Shown here: piece by piece, positions 27,482 to 30,251 of the stretch
How positions within the stretch are numbered: position 1 is the first letter of the stretch
Layout: the number at the start of each line of letters is the position of its first letter
Source: Escherichia coli
GTDB taxonomy: Bacteria; Pseudomonadota; Gammaproteobacteria; Enterobacterales; Enterobacteriaceae
Reading direction: 5' to 3' (one strand)
Assembly (NCBI RefSeq): GCF_003334315.1
Contig: NZ_QOWR01000022.1
Length of the DNA stretch: 64,000 nt
Program-made: the position numbers and the translations under genes
The notes under the pieces: model-generated
The model's input: the letters and a program-made list of their open reading frames with translations, nothing else
What the model was told of the DNA's origin: nothing
The model's database searches: none

Positions 27482-27558
27482 CGGCACGTAGCGCAGCCTG
27501 GTAGCGCACCGTCATGGGGTGTCGGGGGTCGGAGGTTCAAATCCTCTCGTGCCGACCA
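27482..27558 (+). tRNA. proL: tRNA-Pro (anticodon GGG)
   Basis: CGGCACGTAGCGCAGCCTGGTAGCGCACCGTCATGGGGTGTCGGGGGTCGGAGGTTCAAATCCTCTCGTGCCGACCA: cloverleaf with GGG anticodon in the loop and T-arm GGTTCAAATCC. Confidence 0.92.
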
Positions 27559-27569
27559 AAAATCCCAAA

Positions 27570-27598
27570 AAAAACCAACCATTACGGTTGGTTTTTTT
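27570..27598 (+). terminator. Rho-independent terminator after proL
   Basis: Hairpin aaccaacc-atta-cggttggtt followed by a T-run. Confidence 0.75.
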
Positions 27599-27659
27599 AT
27601 ATCTGCAATCAATTCGATAAACAGACCGTGACACATCACAGCCTGTTTATTTTCTGTTA

Positions 27660-30251
27660 TCAGAACGTCCAAACCACACCCGCCTGAGTATTCCACGGCG
27701 ATTCTACCCCTGCGCCATTGCCATAGCTGACTGACAAATGACCGCTTAACGTCGGGGTAAACGATGACCTTATCCCAGCCTGATAAACGCCACGGGTTCC
27801 AGCCACATCATTATTAAATTTGCCATCGTCATTAACTTTCACCTGGTTAGAATCGGCGTATTCCTGACGTACGGCCGCTTTCAGCCAGGGTTCCAGCGTC
27901 GTACCATTTTGCAGGTCCATGTGATAGCTTACCGCCGTTCCCGCTTCAGCGCGTAATATCCGGGTATTTCCCACATCAGCGCGCATGCCGTTTGATAACG
28001 TGTAGTCCTGACCATCTGTGGTAAAGCCGGTAAAGGCCAGATAGGGTCTAACACTCCACAATCCGTCAACCCAACGGAACCCGCTCTCAACATGAGCACC
28101 CGCGCCGTTACTATTGTAATCGCCAAACGCTGTTGCCCCATTACTCATCTTGCCATGGATGGTGTTGGCAAAACGGTCAACTTTCACCACCCCATCAACA
28201 TAGGCACCGTTCTGATGCTCCCAACCGGCATAAGCCCCCAGGGTATAGCTATCGATATTACCTTTTCCGCCGCGATCAAAACCAATATCAGAATGAGAGT
28301 AACCAAAGAACAAGCCGCGAATTGTACTGCTTTCTTCACGGGAGAAACGGCTATCGATACCGAGCGTCAGGCCCGTCAATGTTTGCTCAAAACCAGCTCC
28401 CGCATCAGTGGTCACGTTGTTGCGGGTGTTAATTGCCGAACTCCACATCGCCGTATCGTAACTAACGCCTTTTACGCTACCAAGACGCTCACGCACGGTG
28501 TCCAGTTCTGCATCAAATACCAGCGGTTGTGCGGCCGCCATATTCAGCACATCAGTGGTTGAAGGGGTAATTTGCGCGCGATTCTCTGCCAGACTCCAGC
28601 TATGGTTGCCATTATCCAGCAAGGTATATTCATACGTACCGATATCAACAACGCCTCCGGCATTGCCCAACGTAAATGCAGCATCACCGCCGCCCGTTGT
28701 TACCAGTGTAAGGCTATCTCCTGCTGCCGGGCTGGCACCGGTGTCCGTCACGAATATTTTGAAATCACCTGTTGCCTGACCGGTGACGTTGAGCTGATCG
28801 CTCTGATGATTAGCCATATCGGTACGCATATAAAAATTGCCGTTTCCCGACAGGGTATTGGTGGTCAACGTAATGAAATTTTCCGCACTTGCCGTCACTG
28901 ATGAACGAGTCACTGGCTCATCCATCATAATCACATTTGCGTCAGACATCGCAAGGTTGGCTAAGTTGAGGAGGGTGTTTTGGTTCGTCGTAGTGATATC
29001 GGCAATGATGGTCCATACGCTATTTTCGAGCGAAACGTCCGCTTTGCTGGTATCCACGGCACCATGCGTTCTAAAAGAAGCGCCCTCAGAAACCACTACC
29101 TTACCCACCAACATTGCGGGTGCATAATTTATTTGCGGCTTCATGGCCTCAAGAATGCCATCATTCCCTCTGACTGAAACGTTAACCATTGTGCCAGCCC
29201 AGACGTTAGCGCGGCCATTGTTGATAACCATATTTTCAGAGATGGCTTTTGAGGAATACGTGATACTTCCATTCTGATATGATCGACCGAGATCATATAC
29301 CGCATTTGCCTGCACTTTCGTACCAGTATCCTTTCCCAGCGATTGCATAGTGGCATGCTTATCAAGGATAGTATCAATGGCCTGCGTGTCCTCCATAACA
29401 ATGAGCCCGGAACCATCATCCAGTTCATAATTTTTTGACACACCATCTTTTATACTAAATTGGCCTTTACTGTTTGGACCACTCACTTCCAGCGCATTCG
29501 TTGAGACAATTAATTTTCCGCCTGCTTTTTTATCAACGCCAGTTACAGTCCCGCCATCCATAACCTCCAGTAAGCCGCCACTATCTACAGTGGTATTATA
29601 AGCGAAGTCATTTTCTTCAACTCGCAAACTTCCGCCGTTTTCCAACAACATATTATTAGCAATACCATTCTTGATATCGAACTGACCGAGACGGTTTGTT
29701 CCGAATACCTCCATGGCCCGCGTGGTTGTTTTAATAGCACCGCCTGCTTTCTGATCTACCGCAAATGCAAATCCCCCCTCTTTAACCTCCAGTAGTCCTC
29801 CCTTTTCGATAGCGACAAAGACGGCCCCCCCATCTTTTTCAACGATTAAGCGCCCGCCTTTAATCGTGGTATCATTCGCTGCGCCATAAACCTGTAGCAC
29901 ACCATTATTGAGCGTAGTCTGGTTTGCCGCGCCACCCATTTGAACAATTTGATAACCGTCATTTAATACTGAGTATTCTGCGGCGCCATTTATTTCAATG
30001 TACTGATACCCTCCGTTAATTTCAGTATTATTACTTACACCAAATTCTTTTATATGCTGTTCTCCGCCAGGATTGATTTTCGTATTATTGGCGGTCCCAT
30101 AAACCAGCTGGATATCTTTTTCCAGGACAACACCATCAACTGTCTCACCATACTCAACAGTTGATGCCAATGCTATGGGTGAATATAACGCTGTAGCCAC
30201 CAGAACAGATATTGCGGAACGACAAAGAGAAACAGAACCAGATTGATGCAT
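27660..30251 (-). CDS. yejO: Type Va autotransporter YejO (adhesin-like passenger + C-terminal beta-barrel)
   Basis: 863-aa uninterrupted ORF; signal peptide, repetitive Gly/Asn/Thr-rich passenger typical of a beta-helix, C-terminal barrel ending ...QAGVVWTF. Confidence 0.85.
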   Translation of the reverse strand: MHQSGSVSLCRSAISVLVATALYSPIALASTVEYGETVDGVVLEKDIQLVYGTANNTKINPGGEQHIKEFGVSNNTEINGGYQYIEINGAAEYSVLNDGYQIVQMGGAANQTTLNNGVLQVYGAANDTTIKGGRLIVEKDGGAVFVAIEKGGLLEVKEGGFAFAVDQKAGGAIKTTTRAMEVFGTNRLGQFDIKNGIANNMLLENGGSLRVEENDFAYNTTVDSGGLLEVMDGGTVTGVDKKAGGKLIVSTNALEVSGPNSKGQFSIKDGVSKNYELDDGSGLIVMEDTQAIDTILDKHATMQSLGKDTGTKVQANAVYDLGRSYQNGSITYSSKAISENMVINNGRANVWAGTMVNVSVRGNDGILEAMKPQINYAPAMLVGKVVVSEGASFRTHGAVDTSKADVSLENSVWTIIADITTTNQNTLLNLANLAMSDANVIMMDEPVTRSSVTASAENFITLTTNTLSGNGNFYMRTDMANHQSDQLNVTGQATGDFKIFVTDTGASPAAGDSLTLVTTGGGDAAFTLGNAGGVVDIGTYEYTLLDNGNHSWSLAENRAQITPSTTDVLNMAAAQPLVFDAELDTVRERLGSVKGVSYDTAMWSSAINTRNNVTTDAGAGFEQTLTGLTLGIDSRFSREESSTIRGLFFGYSHSDIGFDRGGKGNIDSYTLGAYAGWEHQNGAYVDGVVKVDRFANTIHGKMSNGATAFGDYNSNGAGAHVESGFRWVDGLWSVRPYLAFTGFTTDGQDYTLSNGMRADVGNTRILRAEAGTAVSYHMDLQNGTTLEPWLKAAVRQEYADSNQVKVNDDGKFNNDVAGTRGVYQAGIRSSFTPTLSGHLSVSYGNGAGVESPWNTQAGVVWTF

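Follow-up and report, generated by a model that had tools for sequence, protein, structure and literature searches.

Described forms of the proL locus

In Shigella flexneri 1c, the interval from tRNA-Pro to yejO is occupied by the gtrIC cryptic prophage (PMC4924310). The window, by which we mean the whole 64,000-nucleotide stretch of DNA analysed here, contains the same slot, bounded at one end by the tRNA-Pro gene next to yejM and at the other by yejO (PMC4924310). The S. flexneri 1c slot holds a prophage integrase 210 bp past the tRNA, serotype-converting genes and many insertion sequences, whereas the slot in the window is empty. In Salmonella, SPI-12 adjoins proL (PMC7143636), and the same tRNA gene anchors horizontally acquired DNA. 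SPI-12 is an island of 6-15 kb, whereas the window has a single-gene yejO block that begins past the terminator. Foreign-looking DNA also stands directly behind an identical proL in the S. enterica subsp. arizonae representative.

The yejM-proL-yejO-narP region of E. coli K-12 MG1655 is like that of the window in gene order, orientation, tRNA and terminator, and K-12 records are 98.4-98.8% identical to the window over queries of 601 nt and 250 nt. An IS5 element is found at yejO in K-12 (PMC11677980), whereas yejO in the window is an uninterrupted open reading frame of 863 codons without IS5. PICI-like phage satellites with a P4-type integrase, as found in E. coli GB089 and 7_26_9A, use as their integration site the stretch 27544-27560, which is unoccupied in the window. 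These satellites carry an integrase about 210 nt past the tRNA, followed by a primase or helicase and then by capsid, head-decoration or small-terminase genes, all of which the window lacks.

Taken with the evidence given below, these comparisons make us highly confident that the window carries the E. coli yejM-proL-yejO-narP locus in its native state, with the site unoccupied (Table 1). The locus is already known, and the empty proL site is not a new finding.

Table 1. Features of the yejM-proL-yejO-narP region, in window coordinates
Feature	Coordinates	Strand	Basis or description
yejM, LPS-biosynthesis-modulating metalloenzyme, upstream neighbour of proL	25647..27407	+	NCBIfam NF038282, 1038.7 bits against a cutoff of 825
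Putative proL promoter	27440..27467	+	Read from the sequence only: -35 TTGCAA (27440-27445), 16-nt spacer, -10 TAGTAT (27462-27467)
proL, tRNA-Pro(GGG), CCA end encoded	27482..27558	+	77 nt; ARAGORN and Rfam RF00005
Unoccupied attB	27510..27560	+	Stretch duplicated as attR in occupied strains; one copy in the window
Bidirectional intrinsic terminator	27568..27598	both	AAAAAAACCAACC-attac-GGTTGGTTTTTTT; perfect inverted repeat with A-run and T-run
yejO and upstream region, without counterpart in Escherichia lineages L035 and L083	27607..30460		2854 nt; blastn
Second, imperfect hairpin between terminator and yejO stop	27617..27650		15-nt arms, 87% complementary, no T-run
yejO, intact AIDA-I/Ag43-like autotransporter, 863 aa	27660..30251	-	Open reading frame and TIGR01414
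narP, conserved gene at the far side of the variable slot	30571..31218	+	NF007708, 457 bits against a cutoff of 343

The tRNA gene, its terminator and its neighbours

ARAGORN finds a single tRNA in the 64-kb window, a tRNA-Pro on the plus strand that folds into a cloverleaf with the anticodon GGG. With the Rfam tRNA model the gene scores 54.9 bits, where the gathering score is 29. We take it to be proL, the gene for the GGG isoacceptor that adjoins yejM and yejO in E. coli K-12. It lies directly downstream of yejM, which ends 74 nt before the tRNA. The candidate promoter in this interval, read by eye, is weakly supported. It matches the consensus at 8 of 12 positions and stays under the threshold of the promoter scanner, which reported no site above threshold around proL, and position-wise conservation of the 75 nt upstream of the tRNA is weak across the order. 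The proL gene is probably transcribed from a promoter of its own, as a single-gene transcript.

Directly behind the tRNA, nine bases past the CCA end, stands a perfect 13-bp inverted repeat (27568-27580 and 27586-27598) with a 5-nt loop. It is the sole terminator-like site within 27300-27800 and has the G+C-containing stem-loop and following T-run of an intrinsic terminator; the 55 nt downstream of proL fold with an energy of -15.7 kcal/mol. Because an A-run and a T-run flank the stem, a hairpin plus T-tract can be read on either strand. The structure would thus serve both proL on the plus strand and yejO on the minus strand. The proL transcript would end at the hairpin and T-run 10-40 nt past the CCA end, by position 27598, while the same palindrome read on the opposite strand would terminate the convergent yejO transcript.

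The terminator recurs behind proL in other species. An exact-match scan for the 77-nt tRNA, with one genome per species, found an identical proL in 118 Enterobacterales species representatives, in nearly all of which a YejM homologue ends upstream of the gene. Downstream sequence of 55 nt or more was available for 116 other species; a strict pattern detects a hairpin and T-run directly after the tRNA in 71 of them, and the number rises to about 75 when four imperfect stems are included. Stem variants such as ACCAAC/GTTGGT, ACCAGC/GCTGGT, ATCAGC/GCTGAT, AGCAGC/GCTGCT and GCCAGC/GCTGGC are compensatory changes. Paired changes of this kind affect three stem positions across the 71 species, by an informal count rather than a covariation statistic, which supports conservation of the terminator structure across species.

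The first-pass annotation described proL as followed by its terminator and then by the 3' end of yejO in about 100 bp. The gap from the tRNA end at 27558 to the start of the yejO stop codon at 27660 measures 101 nt, and the coordinates it gave are accurate to the base. The second, imperfect hairpin in this gap sits within the yejO-bearing insert. When Rfam was searched at a permissive threshold over 25000-31500, the spacer gave only matches far below threshold. Two of these, to OrzO-P (25.5 bits against 60) and IS1222_FSE (22 bits against 45), were taken as chance.

The gene on the far side of the spacer takes its name from RefSeq, where it is annotated as 'autotransporter YejO' in E. coli CP53, which is 99.9% identical over the region. 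Residues 456-863 of YejO match the C-terminal autotransporter beta-barrel model TIGR01414 (E = 4.8e-111) and residues 81-559 resemble the passenger domains of Ag43 and AIDA-I, so that the protein has the C-terminal 12-strand beta-barrel translocator and N-terminal passenger of a type Va autotransporter. A search of YejO against NCBIfam returned this generic barrel domain alone and no YejO-specific model. Beyond yejO, NF007708 covers residues 11-225 of the 225-aa narP open reading frame, which is also annotated as narP in CP53.

Occupied and unoccupied attachment sites

In 4825 of 5426 complete E. coli genomes, a 250-nt query (27440-27689) covering proL, the spacer and the stop codon of yejO aligns without interruption. 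The junction is split in the other 601 or so, about 11% of the total. In every split genome that was sampled, the right-hand piece begins within the 3' half of the tRNA, at 27510, 27540, 27544 or 27556/7. Four of these loci were inspected, those of GB089, 7_26_9A, GE3 and SX23, and all four hold an integrase-bearing element.

The elements are varied. That of GB089 is 12.3 kb long and has a P4-type integrase that starts about 210 nt past the tRNA, with a cargo of an HTH regulator, an Icd-like gene, a primase, SSB, a major capsid protein, a head decoration protein and a connector-like gene. The related element of 7_26_9A (about 8.8 kb) encodes a RepA helicase and a small terminase together with a capsid protein. 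The GE3 element is a lambdoid prophage whose integrase lies towards yejO and which repeats 49 nt of the tRNA. SX23 carries a 19-kb mobilizable island that encodes an integrase, two more recombinases, a relaxase and an 'ABC-three component' system. Junctions resembling the GB089 attL, annotated 'integrase | tRNA-Pro', are present in 433 genomes, of which 90 match at 95% identity or better and the others at about 72%. SX23-type attL junctions are present in 19 genomes and GE3-type junctions on the attR side in 7; about 140 of the interrupted genomes fall outside these assigned types.

At all four inspected loci, the tRNA is made whole again at attL, with foreign DNA from 2-3 nt past the CCA end onward, and attR repeats its last 15-49 nt imperfectly beside the native terminator and yejO. 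Judged from the junction sequences, this arrangement is the pattern expected of tRNA-targeted integration. The comparison shows that the last 15-49 nt of the tRNA and the first bases beyond it serve in other strains as attB for several families of elements with tyrosine integrases. The duplicated part depends on the element: GB089-type satellites duplicate 27544-27560 (core CTCTCGTGCCGACCAAA), the SX23-type island 27540-27560 and the GE3-type prophage 27510-27558. On the circular phage-like replicon pZ1323HEC0010-3 (44.6 kb), a copy of window positions 27507-27600 (84% identical) lies a few kilobases from the integrase gene, and this copy looks like an attP. The attB cores within 27510-27560 could be used as a quick marker for screening other strains.

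Integration at proL extends beyond E. coli. Unrelated sequence follows proL directly in about 41 of the 116 species (35%), and at least 22 species representatives have a P4-type integrase visible near proL within their short flanks. The integrase of occupied genomes, where intact, starts 178-218 nt past the tRNA. Flanks in the species scan were short and uneven, and neither E. fergusonii nor E. marmotae was recognized among its matches. Islands at proL are seen in E. albertii and in Escherichia sp. MOD1-EC7003, with the near side alone contained in the short flanks. By these comparisons proL is a genuine and widely used integration hotspot, which the window shows in its empty state. The first-pass annotation regarded an empty proL as a useful negative, a view borne out by the share of complete E. 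coli genomes in which the site is split. Occupancy there and among the species representatives of other Enterobacterales calibrates how much this negative is worth.

Island traces and the origin of the yejO block

An integrated element would be expected to leave a repeat of the tRNA 3' end. Searches of both strands of the 64-kb window with a 25-mer and a 17-mer from the proL 3' end, at up to three mismatches, gave no second copy. One 17-mer match with three mismatches, upstream and on the opposite strand, was taken as chance. A word-7 blastn comparison of 27482-27660 with the window yielded nothing longer than 14 nt and no match over 27540-27560; the best non-self matches are the terminator's own palindrome and a low-complexity 14-mer. 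The repeat search returned no att-like repeat and a single repeat that touches the tRNA, the 11-mer GCCTGGTAGCG at 27496 and 30506. This candidate att remnant was rejected for its location in the tRNA D-arm and its near-chance frequency, the expectation for an 11-mer match being an estimated 1.3 in 3.3 kb. The same 11-mer also occurs upstream of narP in Escherichia lineage L083, which is without yejO, and with one mismatch in lineage L035.

Gene content agrees with the repeat searches. Positions 1073-64000 are colinear with E. coli CP53 at 99.95% identity, and the gene order over this stretch of CP53 is fruA, yejA-F, bcr, radD, rplY, yejKLM, proL, yejO, narP, ccm, nap, eco, mqo, yojI, alkB, ada, apbE, ompC, rcsDBC and atoSCD. 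The only mobile gene in the CP53 stretch is an ISApl1 in lpxT, which is missing from the window, and this colinear core-gene map places no integrase or IS gene in the 64 kb. The locus bears no trace of such integration, with one copy of the site, the terminator directly behind the tRNA and core genes on both sides. It has the single tRNA 3' end and adjoining native terminator of an unoccupied attB, and has neither the tyrosine integrase and tRNA 3' repeat of a tRNA-integrated island or prophage nor an accessory block starting inside the tRNA 3' end.

The statement in the first-pass annotation that no integrase or island is present at proL is therefore upheld by the lack of a second tRNA 3' end, an integrase or an IS and by the colinearity of the core genes. 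It had proposed a search for direct repeats of the tRNA 3' end further downstream, and none exists in the 64 kb, so there is no attR-like fragment. It had also proposed comparison with strains carrying islands at proL, whose integrase and imperfect tRNA 3' copy are both missing from the window.

The locus is free of integrative elements, yet by its sequence it is not free of accessory DNA, since yejO itself is a lineage-specific, low-GC insert. In a blastn comparison, Escherichia lineage L035 aligns to the window only at 27282-27606 and 30461-31286, and both L035 and L083 have about 25 nt in place of 27607-30460. The narP gene accordingly starts 184 nt after proL in these two lineages, and it does so 198-212 nt after proL in six Citrobacter loci. 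No YejO homologue adjoins proL in the representatives of other species, among which YejO matches only an autotransporter domain of Budvicia aquatica, with 24% identity and some 6 kb downstream. The G+C fraction of the block is 0.44-0.47 over the passenger-coding part (28750-30250) and falls to 0.37 directly upstream of yejO (30000-30499); the flanks lie at 0.51-0.57. The gene also decays often. Comparison of the 601-nt and 250-nt queries identifies about 1,040 genomes, for example E302, that retain the proL junction yet lose sequence past about 27689, and several RefSeq records flag yejO as a pseudogene. From this distribution, yejO is probably not ancestral and represents lineage-specific accessory DNA in a variable proL-narP slot, whether by a single gain or by older presence with repeated losses.

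Such a block might be a decayed old island that entered via proL by site-specific recombination and later lost its integrase and att sites. The absence of yejO between proL and narP in L035, L083 and Citrobacter, the low G+C content of 27607-30460 and the frequent decay of yejO would all suit this history. The left edge of the block, however, lies outside the tRNA, 48 nt past its end and beyond the native terminator. This position is not decisive when taken by itself, because the attP-like copy carried by some proL-targeting phages runs through the terminator, as on pZ1323HEC0010-3. At the right edge neither the tRNA 3' end nor the terminator is repeated, and the only shared word is the D-arm 11-mer, which is near chance frequency and is present in L083 despite its lack of yejO. 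In addition, the block is a single gene without any integrase fragment. A left edge beyond the terminator, combined with the lack of an att repeat and an integrase, makes a tRNA-targeted island unlikely, and we grant the decayed-island history only a slim chance. Were it true, the 'empty' tRNA site would hide an old integration that gave E. coli a lineage-specific adhesin-like autotransporter. Arrival of the yejO block, as older DNA, by a route other than tRNA integration is, on the sequence features of its edges, most likely.

An island whose attR end falls beyond the window or has decayed past recognition would escape repeat searches confined to 64 kb and a few mismatches, but this reading is effectively refuted by colinearity and has almost no probability left, since the 36 kb downstream of proL hold yejO, narP, ccm, nap, eco, mqo, yojI, alkB, ada, apbE, ompC, rcsDBC and atoSC in the usual E. 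coli order, the native terminator stands directly behind the tRNA as at empty sites in at least 71 other species, and foreign DNA directly follows the CCA end in each of the occupied E. coli loci examined.

The practical value of recognizing the site as native and unoccupied is small: it describes a strain without a prophage, satellite or island at proL. The presence of yejO as an insert in the proL-narP slot suggests, as a minor point, that accessory DNA may gather beside tRNA genes without site-specific integration.

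Elements that occupy proL in other E. coli

The commonest occupants of proL, a tRNA-Pro(GGG) gene, in E. coli are elements of 9-12 kb, for example, those found in strains GB089 and 7_26_9A. Members of this type carry an integrase gene, a primase or helicase gene, and genes for capsid, decoration or small terminase; no tail genes are annotated in them. In gene layout, they resemble PICI or capsid-forming PICI phage satellites.

The 3' half of the tRNA gene and its terminator (window 27507-27600) also have a copy, 84% identical, on pZ1323HEC0010-3 (NZ_CP148393.1). This 44.6-kb circular replicon has integrase, ParA, tail-fibre and Lom genes. 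The copy probably serves as attP for a phage or phage-plasmid whose integration target is proL.

Coordinates of features in the window and in other sequences
Feature	Sequence	Coordinates
proL-integrated element	E. coli GB089 (L005)	7638-19960
proL-integrated element	E. coli 7_26_9A (L006)	11898-20660
Putative attP	pZ1323HEC0010-3	6001-6092
Inverted repeat at yejM end	window	27400-27426
yejO deletions in E302-type strains	window	27690-28318; 28776-29779
narP-ccmH segment	window	31247-31397
113-nt repeats, eco-mqo interval	window	44461-44910
90-nt copies, rcsC-rcsB interval	window	56708-56911
ISApl1 insertion point in CP53	window	about 10498-10500

Sequences flanking proL

Upstream of proL, the yejM stop codon is overlapped by a 13-nt inverted repeat (CTAACTGATTAAT / ATAAATCAGTTAG; 92% complementary, 1-nt loop) that has no T-run, and a putative proL promoter lies just downstream. 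On the yejO side, approximately 1,040 complete genomes retain the proL junction and have lost the yejO 3' end. Strains of the type represented by E302 carry two deletions within yejO that leave a frameshifted remnant, whereas yejO in the window is intact.

Variation and repeats elsewhere in the window

The window and the near-identical genome CP53 share a segment of approximately 150 nt in the narP-ccmH interval. It is missing from GB089, 7_26_9A and E302, whose alignments show a gap there. REP-derived Rfam families match it below threshold (naRNA4, 38.3 bits; ES036, 35.6 bits). The segment seems to be a presence-absence polymorphism of the REP/BIME type.

Two other intergenic intervals contain repeats. 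Between eco and mqo, self-offset BLAST matches (92-96% identity) are spaced 113 nt apart, suggesting that a 113-nt unit is repeated in tandem about four times. The rcsC-rcsB interval harbors two 90-nt copies that are 91% identical, with a spacing of 114 nt.

The window also differs from CP53, its closest genome, at lpxT. This gene is split by ISApl1, a member of the IS30 family, in CP53, whereas in the window it is uninterrupted at the same point.
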